Positions 5,617 through 13,020 of a stretch of 13,020 nt of DNA are shown piece by piece. Made by a program: the position numbers and the translations under genes. The notes beneath the pieces were generated by a model. That model was not told the origin of the DNA. It saw nothing but the letters and a program-made list of their open reading frames with translations, and made no database searches. Each line of letters begins with the position of its first letter. Within the stretch, counting starts at the first letter, position 1. Origin of the DNA: a virus (lineage: Duplodnaviria; Heunggongvirae; Uroviricota; Caudoviricetes); IMG/VR virus record IMGVR_UViG_2693429623_000016; one strand, 5' to 3'.

Positions 5617-5625
5617 NNNNNNNNN

Positions 5626-5856
5626 CAGGCATTGCGAAAACCGATTCGAACGGAGCAGGGCGCTAACGGGGCGATACGGGAACTGGAAAAATTCCGTCAG
5701 CAGGGTTTTACACCTGAGCAGGTGATTCGACACAGCATCGCCAATGAATACCAGGGTCTGTTCGCGCCGAAAGGTGTTCGGCCTGAGACGTTGCTCCGAC
5801 AGGTTAACACCGTCTCGTTGCCGGACAGTGCGATCCCGCCAGGCTTCAGGGGGTAA
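5626..5856 (+). CDS. partial CDS: C-terminus of a second O-type replication initiator, resuming after an N-run
   Basis: Ends …AIPPGFRG-stop at 5854-5856, then a DnaC-like ATG at 5863. This mirrors the 3'-end of the O-like gene and its junction with DnaC copy A at 3880-3917. The upstream part of this gene is absent. Confidence 0.45.
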   Translation, partial: QALRKPIRTEQGANGAIRELEKFRQQGFTPEQVIRHSIANEYQGLFAPKGVRPETLLRQVNTVSLPDSAIPPGFRG

Positions 5857-5862
5857 CAGACC

Positions 5863-6609
5863 ATGAAAAATATTGCGACAGGAGGCGTTCTGGAGCGTAT
5901 CCGCAGACTGACCCCACCACATGTAACCGCCCCATTCAGAACGGTTGCGGAGTGGCGCGAGTGGCAACTTGCTGAAGGCCAGAAACGTTGCGAGGAGATC
6001 AACCGCCTGAATCGTCAGTTGCGGGTGGAAAAAATCCTGAACCGCTCCGGCATCCAGCCGTTGCACCGGAAGTGTTCGTTTGCGAATTACCGGGCGCAGA
6101 ACGACGGTCAGCGACATGCACTGAGTCAGGCGAAATCCATAGCTGACGAACTGATGACAGGCTGTACGAATTTTGTGTTCAGCGGTAAGCCCGGCACCGG
6201 AAAAAATCATCTTGCAGACGCGATTGGCAACCGGCTGATGGCGAAGGGGCGTAGCGTGATTATCGTCACCGTGTCCGATGTCATGAGCGTGTTGCATGAG
6301 AGCTACGACAACGGCAAATCCGGTGAAAAATTTTTACAGGAGCTTTGTGGTGTTGACCTGCTGGTCCTGGATGAAATTGGCATGCAGCGGGATACGAAAA
6401 ACGAGCAGGTGGTACTGAACCAGATTGTTGATCGCCGGACGGCATCGTTACGCGGTGTGGGGATGCTGACAAATATTAACCATGCAGCGATGAATACACT
6501 TCTCGGCGAGCGGGTGATGGATCGCATGGTCATGAACGGCGGGCGCTGGGTGAATTTTAACTGGGAGAGCTGGCGTCCGAATGTTAGCCATTCGAGGGTT
6601 GTTAAGTAG
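5863..6609 (+). CDS. DnaC-like replicative helicase loader (AAA+; IstB/DnaC family), copy B, intact
   Basis: 248 aa with Walker A FSGKPGTGKNHLA and Walker B DLLVLDEIG. Collinear similarity to E. coli DnaC as I recall it (…NRSGIQPLHRKCSFANYR…LGERVMDRM…). Confidence 0.9.
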   Translation: MKNIATGGVLERIRRLTPPHVTAPFRTVAEWREWQLAEGQKRCEEINRLNRQLRVEKILNRSGIQPLHRKCSFANYRAQNDGQRHALSQAKSIADELMTGCTNFVFSGKPGTGKNHLADAIGNRLMAKGRSVIIVTVSDVMSVLHESYDNGKSGEKFLQELCGVDLLVLDEIGMQRDTKNEQVVLNQIVDRRTASLRGVGMLTNINHAAMNTLLGERVMDRMVMNGGRWVNFNWESWRPNVSHSRVVK

Positions 6610-6623
6610 TTTCAGGAGGATTT

Positions 6624-6808
6624 ATGGCGAAACCTTTTACTCCCGAACAGCGGGAAGAACTGAAGACGCGAATTGTGGAACTCGTGCATCAGGACGGTCG
6701 GGTCACGATTCGGCAGTTGTCAGATGAAACAGGTATCAGTCGTGCGTCTGTCGGTCGCTTATGCATGGAACTGGTCGCAAGTGGTGATGTATATAATTCT
6801 GGCTACGG
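6624..6808 (+). CDS. partial CDS: N-terminus of the small wHTH-like phage protein (copy B), cut off by N-run 6809-6819
   Basis: RBS AGGAGGA five nt before the ATG at 6624. Sequence is nearly identical to 7274-7458. Confidence 0.5.
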
Positions 6809-6819
6809 NNNNNNNNNNN

Positions 6820-7259
6820 TTGATGAAATTGGCATTCAGCGCGAGACGAAAAACGAGCAGGTGGTGCTGCACCAGATTGTTGATCGCCGGACAGCGTCGA
6901 TGCGCAGCGTGGGGATGCTGACAAACCTGAACTATGAGGTGATGAAAACANNNNNNNNNNNNNNNNNNNNNNNNNNNNNNNNNNNNNNNNNNNNNNNNNN
7001 NNNNNNNNNNNNNNNNNNNGATGAAATTGGCATTCAGCGCGAGACGAAAAACGAGCAGGTGGTACTGAACCAGATTGTTGATCGCCGGACGGCATCGTTA
7101 CGCGGTGTGGGGATGCTGACAAATATTAACCATGCAGCGATGAATACACTTCTCGGCGAGCGGGTGATGGATCGCATGGTCATGAACGGCGGGCGCTGGG
7201 TGAATTTTAACTGGGAGAGCTGGCGTCCGAATGTTAGCCATTCGAGGGTTGTTAAGTAG
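6820..7259 (+). pseudogene. DnaC-like C-terminal gene fragments (two partial copies flanking N-run 6951-7019)
   Basis: 6820-6950 encodes DEIGIQRETKNEQVVLHQIVDRRTASMRSVGMLTNLNYEVMKT, a variant of the DnaC core. 7020-7259 is near-identical to 6362-6609, the 3' end of DnaC-like copy B. Neither fragment has a 5' part. Confidence 0.5.
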
Positions 7260-7273
7260 TTTCAGGAGGATTT

Positions 7274-7643
7274 ATGGCGAAACCTTTTACTCCCGAACAG
7301 CGGGAAGAACTGAAGACGCGAATTGTGGAACTCGTGCATCAGGACGGTCGGGTCACGATTCGGCAGTTGTCAGATGAAACAGGTATCAGTCGTGCGTCTG
7401 TCGGTCGCTTATGCATAGAACTGGTCGCAAGTGGTGATGTATATAATTCTGGCTACGGGGTATTTCCCTCTGAACAGGCTCATAAAGACTGGCAAAACGC
7501 CCGCAAAAAGCTATCGAGGGTAAAGGTGAAGAAACCGGTTGTGGTTGATCCTGACCTTATCTGGTCATTACCAGACGGAGAAATACGCCGCTACGACAGG
7601 CGCCTGAATATAATCTGTCGCGAGTGCCGGAAGAGCGAAGCTA
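7274..7643 (+). pseudogene. small wHTH-like phage gene (copy B') truncated at its 3' end by the IS element
   Basis: Homology to the copy at 8915-9157 is lost after about position 7645, exactly where the IS terminal sequence (TGAGGT…) begins. The ORF then runs into the IS and ends at 7690. Confidence 0.6.
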
Positions 7644-7686
7644 TGAGGTGTACTGGCAATAGCGGACACTACCATTTGTTCTTTTT

Positions 7687-8592
7687 TTAAGCAGCCATCT
7701 GATGATATTTTTCCCTGAAGGCTGCCGGGGAGATATTCCCCAGACGAGAGTGACGACGCTGACGATTGTAGAAAATCTCAATGTATTCCCGTATTACTGA
7801 GATGGCTTCATCCCGGTTATTAAAACGATAGTGGCTCAGGCTCTCATTTTTCAGCGTTCCCCAGAAGCTTTCCATCGGAGCGTTGTCGTAACAGTTACCT
7901 TTACGCGACATTGATGTTTTCAGACCAGACTGCTCCTGTATGACCCGGTAATCGTATGCGCAGTACTGTGAACCTCGATCAGAGTGGTGGATTAGCCCGG
8001 CAGGTGGGCGCTGGCTCCTGAGCGCCATAAACAGGGCTTTACCTGTCAGCTCTTTTGTCATGCGCTCTCCCATGGCGTAGCCGACAATTTCGCACGTATA
8101 AACATCTTTGATGCCAGCGAGGTACAACCATCCCTCCTGTGTGGCAACATACGTCAGGTCCGCCACCCAGACCTGATTTGGTGCTGTAGGAGCGAACGTC
8201 TGGTTCAGCAGATTTGGCGCAACTGGCAGATTGTGGTTCGAGTTCGTAGTCGCTCTGAACTTGCGTTTCTGCTTACAGCGTAGCCTTAGCTCCTTACGAA
8301 GACGTGCCAGTCGGTCACGACCAACGATGATGCCATTCTCTGCCAGCTCCGTCTGGAGCCGCCGGGTTCCATATGTTTCGCGAGTGCGGATATGTGCCAC
8401 CTTAATCTCCAGTTTTAGCCGCTCATCACTTTGTTTTCTGTCTGAGGGTTCATGCTGTACCCAGTTGTAATAACCGCTCCTGGATACACCAAATACCTGA
8501 CACATCGCTTCAATGGGAAATTGTTGTCGCCATTGTTCGATTAACGCGTATTTTTCAGCGACTCCTGTGCAAAATACGCTGTTGCTTTTTTT
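7687..8592 (-). CDS. IS3-family transposase OrfB (DDE/rve integrase core), expressed as an OrfAB fusion by -1 frameshift
   Basis: DDE integrase-like sequence (…WVADLTYV…HHSDRGSQY…NAPMESFW…). The orfB frame is -1 relative to orfA. Slippery heptamer A_AAA_AAA at 8586-8592 (minus strand) lies within the orfA codons tta-aaa-aaa-gca. Confidence 0.85.
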   Translation of the reverse strand, partial: KKSNSVFCTGVAEKYALIEQWRQQFPIEAMCQVFGVSRSGYYNWVQHEPSDRKQSDERLKLEIKVAHIRTRETYGTRRLQTELAENGIIVGRDRLARLRKELRLRCKQKRKFRATTNSNHNLPVAPNLLNQTFAPTAPNQVWVADLTYVATQEGWLYLAGIKDVYTCEIVGYAMGERMTKELTGKALFMALRSQRPPAGLIHHSDRGSQYCAYDYRVIQEQSGLKTSMSRKGNCYDNAPMESFWGTLKNESLSHYRFNNRDEAISVIREYIEIFYNRQRRHSRLGNISPAAFREKYHQMAA

Positions 8593-8843
8593 AATATATC
8601 TCGCTCAAGGCGAGCTTCATTTAACGCCTTACGCAGTTGCAGAATTTCAGATTCCAGTTCAGCCACCGTGCGGGAACCAGGAGTACCGAGCCCTTTTCTG
8701 GCGGCGGTAACCCATTGTCCTAAAGTGCCTTCAGGAAGAGATAATCGGGAAGCGCCTTCACTGATCGAAAGTTGATTTTCAAGAACCGTTCTGACAGCTT
8801 CGGCTTTGAACTCTTTAGAGTAACGTTGGGTTTTTCTGCTCAT
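8541..8843 (-). CDS. IS3-family transposase OrfA (HTH DNA-binding and leucine-zipper part)
   Basis: 100-aa ORF MSRKTQRYSKEFKAEAVRTV…LERDILKKATAYFAQES, typical of IS3-family OrfA. Recalled as IS600-like. Confidence 0.85.
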   Translation of the reverse strand: MSRKTQRYSKEFKAEAVRTVLENQLSISEGASRLSLPEGTLGQWVTAARKGLGTPGSRTVAELESEILQLRKALNEARLERDILKKATAYFAQESLKNTR

Positions 8844-8914
8844 TATTAGCTCCTTCTGATGCCATTCTATTTCAGGAAGGAGTGTCCGTTAAACTCAGGC
8901 TACCTCANNNNNNN

Positions 8915-9214: not shown

Positions 9215-9571
9215 ATGGAAATAAAACCAGAAGATGAGTTAAGCAATATTGTTTTATTTCCGGTAAAAGAGGATAACCCTCGTAATCAGGTTAATTTTCT
9301 TTATGAGCCATCGGAAAGACCATATTGCCATCACGCTTCTGTCCGGGTTGACGAAAAAGAGCGTCAGGTCCGCTGTAAAATTTGCGGTGCAGTTGTGGAG
9401 CCATTTGACTGGATGCTCTCTGTGGCGAAAAGAGAAACCAGACTGGCAGATGATGTAAGGCTCTTGCGCCAGGAGGAGCGGGAAAGGCGAAAAAATATAG
9501 AAAAGCTAATCCAGATTGAGCGTAATGCGAAAGCGCGGATACGCAGGGTGACAAAATATAGCCCCGAATAA
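9215..9571 (+). CDS. hypothetical protein with putative zinc-ribbon and basic coiled-coil C-terminus
   Basis: RBS AGGAGAGGAG at 9204-9213 before the ATG at 9215. Cys/His cluster (YCHHASVRVDEKERQVRCKICG) followed by a charged helical segment (RLLRQEERERRKNIEKLIQIERNAKARIRR). Alternative GTG start at 9158 with AGGAGG at 9141-9146. Confidence 0.5.
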   Translation: MEIKPEDELSNIVLFPVKEDNPRNQVNFLYEPSERPYCHHASVRVDEKERQVRCKICGAVVEPFDWMLSVAKRETRLADDVRLLRQEERERRKNIEKLIQIERNAKARIRRVTKYSPE

Positions 9572-9785
9572 TCAAGGTTATTTCTGGAAGTCAAGTCGTG
9601 AGTGATGAGGACTAACAAATACGGTGAACTCGATAAAGAGATTCAGGACGAACTGGAGGCCAGGAATGATTGACAAATCACCAAGTGAGTTCAGCTACAA
9701 AGATTTATTGTCATAACGGGTTATGAGATCGACTTGGTGCGTGATATTCTTCGGGCCAGTTTGCTATGCGCCACCATGAGATGTT

Positions 9786-11758
9786 ATGGCCCGCATGTTT
9801 GATACATTAGGATTTTACATTATGAATGTGCAACATTTTGATTTTTTTACAGATAATGAGTTTTCTAATCTGGAAAGATATCAAACTTGTAAAGCCATGG
9901 CCAAAGGTTATGCGGGCAATTACAAAACCGGGCAGTCAAGGTTGATGCATGCCCGCTCATACTGCTTCAGCATCGTAGCTGCATATTGGGATACCCTTGC
10001 AAAAAAGCAAAAAAGCAGCATTAAAATGAGGGCAGTACCGCACACTGTTTACATAGAAGACATTCCATGTGATGCACGCGAGCTCGCTGAACGAACAGGT
10101 GAGCTTATTGCTCAATTTCCGGCGGAGGACGCTGGATATCTGATTGGGTCAATTTATACGGTAATGCTGCCATCCGCTTACCGTTCGGAATTGGGGGCTT
10201 ACTATACCCCCCCACCTTTGGTAGCGCGTCTCTTGGACCTGGCTGAAAAGTCTGGTGTTGATTTTTCTCATGCATCGGTTATTGATCCTGCGTGTGGTGG
10301 CGGTGCATTTTTGGCACCAGTAGCCATTCGAATGTTAAAAAAAGACAAGGGGTCTTCCCCTGAATGGATGTTGAGGAGAATCAGTCGTCGTTTAAAGGGG
10401 ATAGAAATCGATCCATTTGCGGCTTGGATGAGTTTGGTATTGCTCGAATCTGTACTAATGCCACTATGTGTAAAGGTAAAACGTAGATTGCCTGAAGATA
10501 CAATTATTGTTGCTGATGCGCTTCAGCAAGATAAATTTTCTGGTTATGATCTTGTGGTAGGGAATCCGCCTTACGGACGTGTCACTCTCGATATTAAAAC
10601 GAGAGAAAAATATTCTCGTTCGTTATTTGGTCATGCAAATCTATATGGATTGTTCACCGACTTAGCTGTTCGCATGGTTAAANNNNNNNNNNNNNNNNNN
10701 NNNNNNNNNNNNNNNNNNNNNNNNNNNNNNNNNNNNNNNNNNNNNNNNNNNNNNNNNNNNNNNNNNNNNNNNNNNNNNNNNNNNNNNNNNNNNNNNNNNN
10801 NNNNNNNNNNNNNNNNNNNNNNNNNNNNNNNNNNNNNNNNNNNNNNNNNNNNNNNNNNNNNNNNNNNNNNNNNNNNNNNNNNNNNNNNNNNNNNNNNNNN
10901 NNNNNNNNNNNNNNNNNNNNNNNNNNNNNNNNNNNNNNNNNNNNNNNNNNNNNNNNNNNNNNNNNNNNNNNNNNNNNNNNNNNNNNNNNNNNNNNNNNNN
11001 NNNNNNNNNNNNNNNNNNNNNNNNNNNNNNNNNNNNNNNNNNNNNNNNNNNNNNNNNNNNNNNNNNNNNNNNNNNNNNNNNNNNNNNNNNNNNNNNNNNN
11101 NNNNNNNNNNNNNNNNNNNNNNNNNNNNNNNNNNNNNNCCTGTTTTCTTAATGTATTAAAACAGATGTCTACGCGTTTAGCTGATCTGGGATACTCAGTC
11201 TCTACAGGTCAGTTAGTCTGGAATCGATTTAAGTCGCAGTTGCGTACGACGAAAGGAAAAAATAGCTACCCATTAGTCTGGGCGGAATCAATAACTTCAG
11301 CTGGTTTTCGTTTTAGTGCAGACAGAAAAAATCATGTTCCCTATATCGATATAACCCCACAACAGGGTTTCCTTGTGACAAAATCTGAATGTGTGCTTGT
11401 TCAGCGGACAACATCGAAGGAACAGGACAGAAGGATTTTAGCGGCAATTTTACCTCAGGGATTTATAGATGAAACTGGTGGCGTAGTAGTTGAAAACCAT
11501 ATTAATATTGTATATTCAAACGGATTGTTCTCTGCGGTTCGCCCTGATGTTATTGATATGCTACTTAATTCGCATGTTGTCGATCGGGCGTTCAGGTGTA
11601 TAAGCGGAAGTGTTGCTGTTTCGGCCTATGAATTGAATTCAATCCCGTTGCCTTCTCTGGAGCAGGTGATGGAGATTCAATCGTTAATTGATGCTGGCGT
11701 CCACAGACGGATTATTGAGAGAACTATCGCTGGTTTCTATGGAGTGATGATTGCATGA
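9786..11758 (+). CDS. N6-adenine DNA methyltransferase, gamma class (Eco57I/TaqI-like catalytic domain plus C-terminal target-recognition domain); middle hidden by N-run 10683-11138
   Basis: Motif X-like GAYYTPPPLVARLL, motif I DPACGGGAFL and motif IV VVGNPPYG occur in that order. After the N-run the frame is open back to the gap and encodes a TRD-like region (LADLGYSVSTGQLVWNR … AYELNSIPLP). The two halves are in different frames relative to the N count, so gene continuity is inferred rather than seen. Confidence 0.75.
10683..11138. other. run of 456 N inside the methyltransferase gene (assembly gap or masked)
   Basis: Directly visible in the sequence. Confidence 1.
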
Positions 11759-12837
11759 ATCTGCCTGTTGTTCCCCCATTGAATGTTATCCGGGAAAGAT
11801 TACAATTAATTTTCCCTGAAGGGACTGAGAATCGTGGATATTTAATTCGGGAAATAGCTGCAAAAACAATTTTTGTCATGTTTTATGCTGGTGCGGTTGA
11901 GGGGCTGGGGCGATGGATAAGGCCCAGCCAGGTTGTAAGTATGGGAGATTCGCAGGCTGCTCTTACTGATGATGCGTCCAGAGAAAGCTGGGTAAAGATG
12001 ACTTTCTCTAAACAAAAGATAAGGCCTGCTGATGCATGGTATGCGGAAAATACGCGTGAGCCAATACGTGATGAAACTATAAAAAATGGCCTAATACCTT
12101 GCAATGCAATTGTTGAGCGTAAAGGTATACCCACCACATCCTCTCGTCCTCGTTACAGTTTGAATCGCTCTTTTGCAGCACTCTTTGATGCCGGGCTTGA
12201 AGGAGATTCGCTGCTGAGTGCAATAAGTTCCTGGCAAGAAAATCATTTGAACAAAGCCGCTCTTGCTAGGTTGCGTTTATTGAAATCAGGGGCAGTGATT
12301 GCTGCTGATGCCGTAGTCGTCACTTTCCCAAATGGAGAGAAGAGAACTTTAGCTCCGGGCCCGTCAAGTACAATAGCTAAGGCCGTCATCGAAGTTTTTG
12401 CTCCTAATTTTCTTAAGAATCCAACTGTGCTCTGGTTGTCTGAATCCGGGAATAAAGTTGTTGCTCAGGATGATGTATTGGCAAAAGCATTGGGGCTGAA
12501 TATTGATGCCTCAAAAGCACTTCCAGATATTATTTTGATTGATTTGGGAGAGGACCGAACGGGTTCGGACATGCTTGTAGTTTTCACTGAAGTAGTTGCG
12601 ACAGATGGGCCTATAAACAGGGAACGAAAAGTTACTCTCACTCATTTGGCTATTGACGCTGGGTTCAGCGAGAAAAATCTTGCATTCCTTACGGCATTTA
12701 TGGACAGAAGTGCTCTGCCTTTTAAAAAGGCAATACCAGAATTGGCGTGGGGATCTTATGCATGGTTTGCTTCTGAACCGGAGCACTTAATTGATCTTCG
12801 GGATGGTTATCCGGTAAAGATCAGCCAGAGAAAATGA
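11755..12837 (+). CDS. putative Type II restriction endonuclease (BsuBI/PstI-like?), partner of the methyltransferase
   Basis: 360-aa ORF whose ATG overlaps the methyltransferase stop (ATGA at 11755-11758). N-terminal segment IFPEG…AAKTIFVMFYAGAV…AENTREPIRDE resembles what I recall of BsuBI/PstI-family nucleases, which typically pair with Eco57I-type methyltransferases. No canonical PD-(D/E)xK motif was confidently identified. Confidence 0.5.
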   Translation: MNLPVVPPLNVIRERLQLIFPEGTENRGYLIREIAAKTIFVMFYAGAVEGLGRWIRPSQVVSMGDSQAALTDDASRESWVKMTFSKQKIRPADAWYAENTREPIRDETIKNGLIPCNAIVERKGIPTTSSRPRYSLNRSFAALFDAGLEGDSLLSAISSWQENHLNKAALARLRLLKSGAVIAADAVVVTFPNGEKRTLAPGPSSTIAKAVIEVFAPNFLKNPTVLWLSESGNKVVAQDDVLAKALGLNIDASKALPDIILIDLGEDRTGSDMLVVFTEVVATDGPINRERKVTLTHLAIDAGFSEKNLAFLTAFMDRSALPFKKAIPELAWGSYAWFASEPEHLIDLRDGYPVKISQRK

Positions 12838-12989
12838 CCAAAGTTTGATATCCGCCACGCCCTGAAGGATGGGGGTTTTACGGTGCACTGGATAAAAAAT
12901 CGGTTTCATAGATTTGCCCACCGTGGTATACGCCTGCGATAAAAACTTTATTGTCATCAACGGCAAAAGCAATAATTGTTCTGTGGCGG

Positions 12990-13020
12990 GGTGATGCTGC
13001 CAACTTACTGATTTAGTGTA
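12990..13020 (+). mobile_element. IS1 terminal fragment (5' end including left inverted repeat); the IS1 body lies downstream of the window
   Basis: Bases 12990-13020 (ggtgatgctgccaacttactgatttagtgta) match the canonical IS1 5' terminus GGTGATGCTGCCAACTTACTGAT…; same orientation as the fragment at 1-30. Confidence 0.8.

Follow-up and report, generated by a model that had tools for sequence, protein, structure and literature searches.

A prophage-borne gene pair of the BsuBI/PstI/SdaI restriction-modification family in an IS1-bracketed lambdoid remnant of Shigella sonnei

The subject of this study is a pair of adjacent genes near the right-hand end of IMG/VR virus record IMGVR_UViG_2693429623_000016, a stretch of Caudoviricetes DNA of 13,020 nucleotides that is referred to as a whole as the window. 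The genes encode a DNA methyltransferase (methylase) and a predicted restriction endonuclease (nuclease) of 360 amino acids (aa), and their coordinates are given together with those of the surrounding features in Table 1. The methylase gene is read in three pieces on the plus strand, namely an N-terminal part (9786-10682), a run of 456 N (10683-11138) and a C-terminal part (11141-11758), and its stop codon overlaps the start codon of the nuclease gene within the sequence ATGA. The same 4-bp overlap is found in the homologues of Kluyvera, Citrobacter and Serratia and in the PstI-type system of Stx2 phages, and, judging from the sequence, it would represent translational coupling of the methylase and the nuclease. 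Most methylase homologues are 598 aa long, and the ATG at 9822 is preceded, 7 nt upstream, by an AGGA; translation of the methylase therefore probably starts at 9822 rather than 9786. A first-pass annotation of this DNA had remarked on the TPPP, DPACGGGAFL and NPPYG motifs of the methylase, on the ATGA overlap with a 360-aa open reading frame (ORF), on a higher AT content of the pair and on its position at the prophage edge beside an IS1 copy. Our analysis agrees with it on each of these points: the G+C content of the gene pair is 43.4%, compared with 49.6% in the remainder of the window, and the left end of IS1 begins 152 bp past the nuclease stop.

Table 1. Coordinates of the gene pair and of associated features, counted from the first nucleotide of the window
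Feature	Coordinates	Strand	Remarks
Conserved 5' leader of the mobile cassette	9663..9821	+	Cross-genus homology with Kluyvera and Citrobacter prophages
Methylase gene	9786..11758	+	610 aa if started at 9786; 598 aa, with ATG 9822 as start, is more likely
N-terminal helical domain of the methylase (predicted)	9822..10190	+	Spans aa ~13-135 of the 610-aa form; canonical M.PstI/M.BsuBI-type enzymes lack it
ATGA stop/start overlap	11755..11758	+	Read from the sequence; nuclease ATG 11755-11757, methylase TGA 11756-11758
Nuclease gene	11755..12837	+	360-aa ORF, predicted BsuBI/PstI/SdaI-family Type II restriction endonuclease; winged helix-turn-helix (HTH) and PD-(D/E)XK domains
ParE/RelE toxin gene 3' remnant	12878..12989	-	Cut by IS1; homology of the window to loci L001 and L009 ends at 12989
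Left end of IS1	12990..13020	+	Prophage truncated here, 152 bp past the nuclease stop

If the 456 N are counted as real bases, the two halves of the methylase fall into different reading frames (9786 in frame 0 and 11141 in frame 2). A megablast search recovered the same region in two of 5426 complete Escherichia coli genomes, at 99.9% and 99.4% identity, and in both of them RefSeq annotates a single 610-aa "HsdM family class I SAM-dependent methyltransferase" and downstream, overlapping it by 4 bp, a "BsuBI/PstI family type II restriction endonuclease" of 360 aa. Over those parts of both genes that can be read in the window, complete S. sonnei and E. coli genomes are 99.9-100% identical to it, and the counterpart of the N-run in them is 316 bp, a length that joins both frames. 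Two complete S. sonnei chromosomes (L006 and L008) match every visible base of both genes at 100% identity and have the 316-bp gap and a single ORF, and L001 likewise has the methylase in one ORF. The number of N in the run is uninformative, because another N-run in the window likewise disagrees with the complete genomes (484 N vs 429 bp), and we accordingly rejected the 456 N as a real distance. Comparison with these sequences supports the view that the N-run hides nothing unusual and that the methylase is one gene. The first-pass annotation had allowed for two separate genes or a pseudogene once the gap was closed; what the near-identical complete genomes contain is one ORF of 610 aa.

A Pfam search of the 360-aa protein matched both domains of the BsuBI/PstI family, which are the HTH domain PF17728 (E = 1.2e-30, residues 10-172, above the gathering score) and the nuclease domain PF06616 (E = 9.3e-45, residues 188-349). 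The PADLOC REase_II model PDLC03589 covers the protein over its full length (2.8e-128). SdaI (2ixs) is the only solved structure that is related to the nuclease by sequence (phmmer, 1.8e-16). It was also the sole match in the PDB with E < 1e-3 (5.8e-17, probability 1.00) when a model of the nuclease, predicted by AlphaFold (AF2) from 37 homologues with a predicted local distance difference test score (pLDDT) of 81, was searched with Foldseek. The global TM-score between this model and 2ixs is only 0.40-0.44, which is probably due to a differing orientation of the two domains in the model. Residues P257, D258 and E279 are invariant in the 37 homologues, the sequence of the window included, and D258 and E279 align with D233 and E248 of SdaI. 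We take the latter two to be the catalytic residues of SdaI, and their numbering agrees with the alignment. In a profile comparison (hhalign), the nuclease matched the type of enzyme that recognises CTGCAG in Stx2 phages with 98.8% probability and 30% identity over 230 columns. Sequence and model thus identify the partner as a BsuBI/PstI-family restriction endonuclease with a predicted SdaI-like fold, and cleavage of DNA is the predicted activity. The nuclease identity that the first-pass annotation had offered tentatively, while allowing that the protein might have no homology to a nuclease fold, is in this way established by both Pfam domains and by the match to SdaI in sequence and in predicted fold.

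The methylase matches Pfam N6_Mtase and Eco57I, and the PADLOC MTase_II model PDLC03338 covers it from end to end (E = 3e-299). Motifs X, I and IV are represented by YYTPPP (aa 139-144), DPACGGGAFL (aa 167-176) and NPPYG (aa 260-264), and all three are invariant in 37 homologues. The AF2 model of the protein has a pLDDT of 87 and a predicted TM-score (pTM) of 0.85, and the folds that match it best are those of CamA, M.BseCI and M.TaqI, with E-values from 1e-17 to 1e-20. These sequence and model comparisons indicate that the protein is a gamma-class N6-adenine DNA methyltransferase, for which formation of N6-methyladenine is predicted. From motif IV through the C-terminal recognition domain, the methylase shares 25% identity with its M.BsuBI-like counterpart in Stx2 phages. 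Because of this similarity, the nuclease and the methylase can both be regarded as distant relatives of the PstI/BsuBI pair.

The methylase differs from the M.BsuBI-like enzyme in its N-terminal part. Motif IV lies ~125 aa farther from the N-terminus than in the methylase of Stx2 phages, and this comparison confirms the ~130-aa extension before motif X that had been noticed earlier. Residues ~28-136 are predicted to form a helical bundle at a pLDDT of ~90, and Y32, C35, K36, R52, R57, C60 and W68 are conserved within this domain. A Pfam search with residues 13-157 gave no match even at E = 10. The residue number at which the catalytic core starts is close to that in the Type I HsdM structures 2okc and 5ybb, and the methylase model gives long alignments to Type IIG enzymes and BrxX. 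By analogy, these likenesses suggest that the N-terminal domain is the helical domain common to the HsdM/Type IIG/BrxX branch of methylases. The domain might also have a role beyond scaffolding, for example by autoregulating the operon in place of a C protein or by contacting the nuclease.

More than 3700 homologues were found for each of the two proteins. In 80 loci of species-representative genomes, which span Proteobacteria, Acidobacteriota, Firmicutes, Chloroflexota, Bacteroidota and Spirochaetota, the nuclease is 51-68% identical to that of the window, and in 78 of the 80 it is immediately preceded, on the same strand, by a homologous methylase. PADLOC keeps its models for this long form distinct from those for the shorter PstI type and for the SdaI type. 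Between genera, DNA homology with Kluyvera and Citrobacter extends from ~110-160 bp before the methylase start to at most 5 bp past the nuclease stop, which delimits a mobile unit of ~3.1 kb (window ~9663-12842). The unit consists of the leader, the methylase and the nuclease; no small HTH controller gene for a C protein is among its contents, and the neighbouring genes vary with the host. Lambdoid prophages of Kluyvera and Citrobacter carry the cassette with the replication genes on one side and the nin-type region on the other. In a P2-like prophage of Serratia marcescens (L097, 3580-10302), whose nuclease is 75% identical, it lies between gpA and the portal gene, a slot that we take to be a known hotspot for defence genes carried by P2-like phages. 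Burkholderia glumae and Xanthomonas phaseoli likewise carry the cassette, on conjugative plasmids.

Over its last ~130 nt, the leader hardly differs between three genera (Shigella/E. coli, Kluyvera and Citrobacter), and it presumably carries a putative promoter or operator of the cassette's own. Scans of the leader for promoters, terminators and repeats gave nothing beyond chance. At 9718-9790 of the window, the leader contains a repeated ATGAGAT(C/G) element (TTATGAGATCG ... CCATGAGATGTTATGG) that is kept in Shigella, Kluyvera and Citrobacter and that could be a candidate operator. Just upstream of the cassette, an ORF of 118 aa (9215-9571, plus strand) has a weak zinc-ribbon Pfam match as its only match; it travels with the cassette in prophages of E. 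coli and S. sonnei and is located outside the unit that is shared with Kluyvera and Citrobacter.

The exact nuclease protein occurs on at least 1000 contigs that are named Shigella sonnei by NCBI. From these sequences, the cassette appears to be common in S. sonnei, where it is apparently near fixation, and rare in E. coli, where it was found in 2 of the 5426 complete genomes.

We are confident, short of certainty, that the two genes constitute a conventional Type II restriction-modification (R-M) cassette, that is, an accessory pair inserted in a lambdoid prophage which in S. sonnei has become an IS1-bracketed remnant. The pair itself is already annotated: both proteins carry names in RefSeq, and each is covered over its full length by a Type II R-M model of PADLOC. 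The comparisons above show its membership of the family, its domain architecture, the conservation of its catalytic residues, its intactness, the linkage of the two genes and their mobility; its enzymatic activity in this strain and its expression from its own promoter we infer. The mechanism that we propose is derived from knowledge of the family. The product of the first gene would be a monomeric gamma-class methyltransferase with a helical N-terminal domain, a Rossmann core that holds the S-adenosylmethionine (SAM) motif DPACGGGAFL and the catalytic NPPY, and a C-terminal TaqI-like recognition domain, and it would mark adenine at N6 in both strands of a short site that is probably a palindrome. 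The product of the second gene would be an SdaI/PstI-type endonuclease that reads the site by means of an N-terminal winged-helix domain and that cuts DNA without the methyl mark by means of a C-terminal PD-(D/E)XK domain (D258 and E279). The order of the genes, with the methylase first, and the ATGA overlap would tie translation of the nuclease to that of the methylase, so that a new host would be protected before cutting began. The pair would then shield the lysogen from incoming phage and plasmid DNA, and it would also penalise its own loss, because residual nuclease would kill cells from which the pair had been lost.

Several observations weigh against this interpretation. The position of SdaI K251 is occupied by an invariant alanine in this nuclease, a scan of the leader for the sigma-70 consensus gave no strong match, and the window leaves 316 bp of the methylase gene unread. 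The searchable literature yielded no activity, methylome or expression data for the subfamily, and nothing relevant was found in the literature on the S. sonnei methylome or on this gene pair. In one S. sonnei assembly (GCA_040189005.1; L007, 8209-10004), a 1-bp indel splits the methylase into ORFs of 133 aa and 428 aa, and the nuclease is intact and identical. If this frameshift is genuine, the nuclease is tolerated without the methylase and would be weak or silent. The alanine is not disqualifying, because the active EcoGIII-type enzyme of Stx2 phages is also without a lysine at that position.

Three other accounts of the pair must be weighed against the R-M cassette. The first-pass annotation had named two candidates, a Type II R-M system and a novel defence module in which the 360-aa protein is a different effector. 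Only the former has withstood analysis, through the Pfam matches, the match to SdaI, the methylase in a single ORF, PADLOC and RefSeq. We found nothing in favour of the latter and rejected it as scarcely credible: both BsuBI/PstI Pfam domains score far above threshold, SdaI is the sole significant structural match, the REase_II model of PADLOC matches at full length (2.8e-128), RefSeq already names the nuclease, and PADLOC Type II R-M models cover both proteins from end to end. It is also conceivable that the methylase is broken in this isolate and that the N-run conceals an insertion, a deletion or a frameshift. The N-run is 140 bases longer than the real gap (456 N vs 316 bp) and shifts the frame as written, and the assembly is messy elsewhere, with five further N-runs and ~3.3 kb of extra, partly duplicated sequence that includes an IS3-family element. 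However, the length of another N-run is also wrong (484 N vs 429 bp), complete S. sonnei genomes match the sequence on either side of the gap at 100% identity, and a simple insertion of an insertion sequence (IS) would not strip 316 bp of unique sequence from the contig ends; we consider a broken methylase improbable.

Silence of the system carries more weight than either of these. According to this account, the pair is an inactive or silent relic in S. sonnei, its ORFs owe their intactness solely to the youth of the lineage, and the nuclease is unexpressed or inactive. The prophage is decayed and has been cut by IS1 on both sides, the consensus scan recognised no promoter in the leader, and one assembly (L007) has a frameshifted methylase beside an intact nuclease. 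S. sonnei is a recent clone, so that identity among its isolates tells little about selection. However, both ORFs are of full length and retain every residue that is invariant in the family, and IS1 stopped 152 bp past the nuclease stop and left the cassette and its leader untouched in a genome full of IS-disrupted genes. Moreover, the lone frameshift amounts to an indel of 1 bp in a single assembly, for which a sequencing error may be responsible. We regard a silent relic as unlikely, although it deserves more credence than a broken methylase, and retain the R-M cassette as the preferred interpretation.

The recognition site of the cassette is a separate question. We give slightly less than an even chance to CTGCAG or to a site that includes this core. 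CTGCAG, which the first-pass annotation had named as the motif to examine if the pair is PstI-like, is a reasonable candidate. To assume a PstI-like specificity is nevertheless to guess, because identity to the characterised CTGCAG enzymes is only 25-30% (for the EcoGIII/BsuBI-like enzymes, 27-30% for the nuclease and 25% for the methylase), and this is too low for specificity to be transferred from them. In a self-avoidance test, synonymous codons were shuffled in 60 non-redundant methylase-nuclease cassettes (165 kb) and all 64 six-base palindromes were counted. In this test, the power of which is not validated, CTGCAG was the most over-represented palindrome (94 observed vs 66 expected, z = +3.8), no palindrome was absent, and GGGCCC, CCCGGG and CGTACG were depleted, which looks like generic avoidance of palindromes. 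A further lead to CTGCAG was offered by XorKII, a CTGCAG system of Xanthomonas oryzae pv. oryzae (PMC2853133), and by the presence of a 61%-identical member of the subfamily in X. translucens. A search from the X. translucens protein returned members in X. hortorum and X. oryzae pv. oryzicola and none named pv. oryzae among the 120 listed matches. The lead therefore failed and gives no support; XorKII is probably of the short PstI type.

The competing account is that the R-M system is genuine and recognises a site other than CTGCAG, with the long form (598-aa methylase and 360-aa nuclease) as a separate specificity class within the PstI/SdaI family. It draws on the low identity to the CTGCAG enzymes of Stx2 phages, on the separation of the long, PstI and SdaI forms into different PADLOC models, and on the absence of CTGCAG avoidance in the 60 diverse cassettes, with the same reservation about the power of the test. 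In addition, SdaI, which lies at a similar distance, already differs, with its 8-bp site CCTGCAGG. On the other side, to our knowledge every characterised relative (PstI, BsuBI, EcoGIII, YenI and SdaI/SbfI) shares the CTGCAG core. For EcoGIII, methylation of CTGCAG is documented (PMC3893438). The YAxNTRExxR motif and other blocks are also common to the long form and the EcoGIII type. Furthermore, PstI isoschizomers are reported from several genera that carry the cassette, such as XphI from Xanthomonas phaseoli, and plasmids of X. phaseoli hold a 55%-identical member. A site of a different class thus has a substantial claim, which we place below the even mark.

Comparison with known systems places the cassette among well-described relatives. 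The closest parallel is EcoGIII of the Stx2 prophages of E. coli O104:H4, O145 and O103, which is also prophage-borne, also has the methylase before the nuclease with a 4-bp overlap, and has a nuclease of the same family, as the profile comparison described above indicates. The proteins differ in size, with a methylase of 489 aa in EcoGIII vs 598-610 aa here and a nuclease of 317 aa vs 360 aa, and the EcoGIII methylase is without the ~110-125-aa N-terminal helical domain. EcoGIII adjoins cI, whereas the present pair comes after the replication genes. EcoGIII is a PstI-type system that has been demonstrated experimentally to be active and to methylate CTGCAG (PMC3893438), whereas the present pair is known from sequence and models. 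SdaI (2ixs) has the same two-domain layout and the aligned PD...E residues, at about 20% identity to this nuclease. M.TaqI, CamA and M.BseCI share the motif order and the NPPY motif with the methylase, at 14-19% identity and with other sites; unlike them, the methylase has an N-terminal helical domain that is placed as in Type I HsdM and Type IIG enzymes. Pairs in which a BsuBI/PstI restriction endonuclease is accompanied by an N-6 methylase have also been described on SGI1-related genomic islands (AGI1 A025-A026) of Gammaproteobacteria that include E. coli and Vibrio (PMC9035990). The AGI1 pair has the same annotation as the present one but is island-borne, and the likeness is one of annotation.

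The window is the entire segment between two directly oriented IS1 copies. Positions 1-30 read as the right end of one copy, and the inverted repeat at the opposite end of the window reads as the left end of the other. Complete S. sonnei genomes are 100% identical to the window up to the 12989/12990 boundary, after which come InsA/InsB and then the chromosomal genes for a ydfI-type mannitol dehydrogenase, ydfZ and dcp. The IS1-bracketed remnant is a composite-transposon-like, deletion-prone arrangement. In intact relatives of the prophage, the R-M cassette is followed by a complete parDE pair and then by late genes, and in L001 and L009 ParE and ParD lie immediately downstream of the cassette. 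A second set of such genes, with a ParE toxin, a PaaA2 antitoxin and an HTH regulator (paaR2-paaA2-parE2 type), occupies 971-2005 on the minus strand, where the Pfam matches were obtained on the identical genes of L005. By sequence comparison, the remnant would thus once have held two ParE-type systems in addition to the R-M pair.

Between short N-runs, ~3.3 kb of the window (5617-8914) are absent from the complete S. sonnei genomes, in which 5616 joins 8915 across 42 bp. This segment contains another DnaC-like gene, which shares 82% identity with the first, DUF977 fragments that are in part duplicated and, on the minus strand, an IS3-family element (orfA 8541-8843 and orfB 7687-8505). The segment has the appearance of a genuine IS insertion into the DUF977 gene combined with contigs from a paralogous prophage that were scaffolded in.

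Prophage-borne Type II R-M systems, including the PstI type in Stx phages of E. coli, are well documented, and in this respect the present case has little importance beyond correct annotation. The recognition site of the widespread long-form subfamily is not documented in the searchable literature. It is possible, although we consider it doubtful, that this subfamily, which occurs in many phyla at > 50% identity, is an uncharacterised specificity class of the PstI/SdaI family and that in S. sonnei it could constitute a lineage-defining barrier to the flow of genes and phages. Because the cassette appears to be common in S. sonnei and rare in E. coli, it may influence how efficiently the former pathogen is transformed, how susceptible it is to phages and how readily it takes up plasmids.

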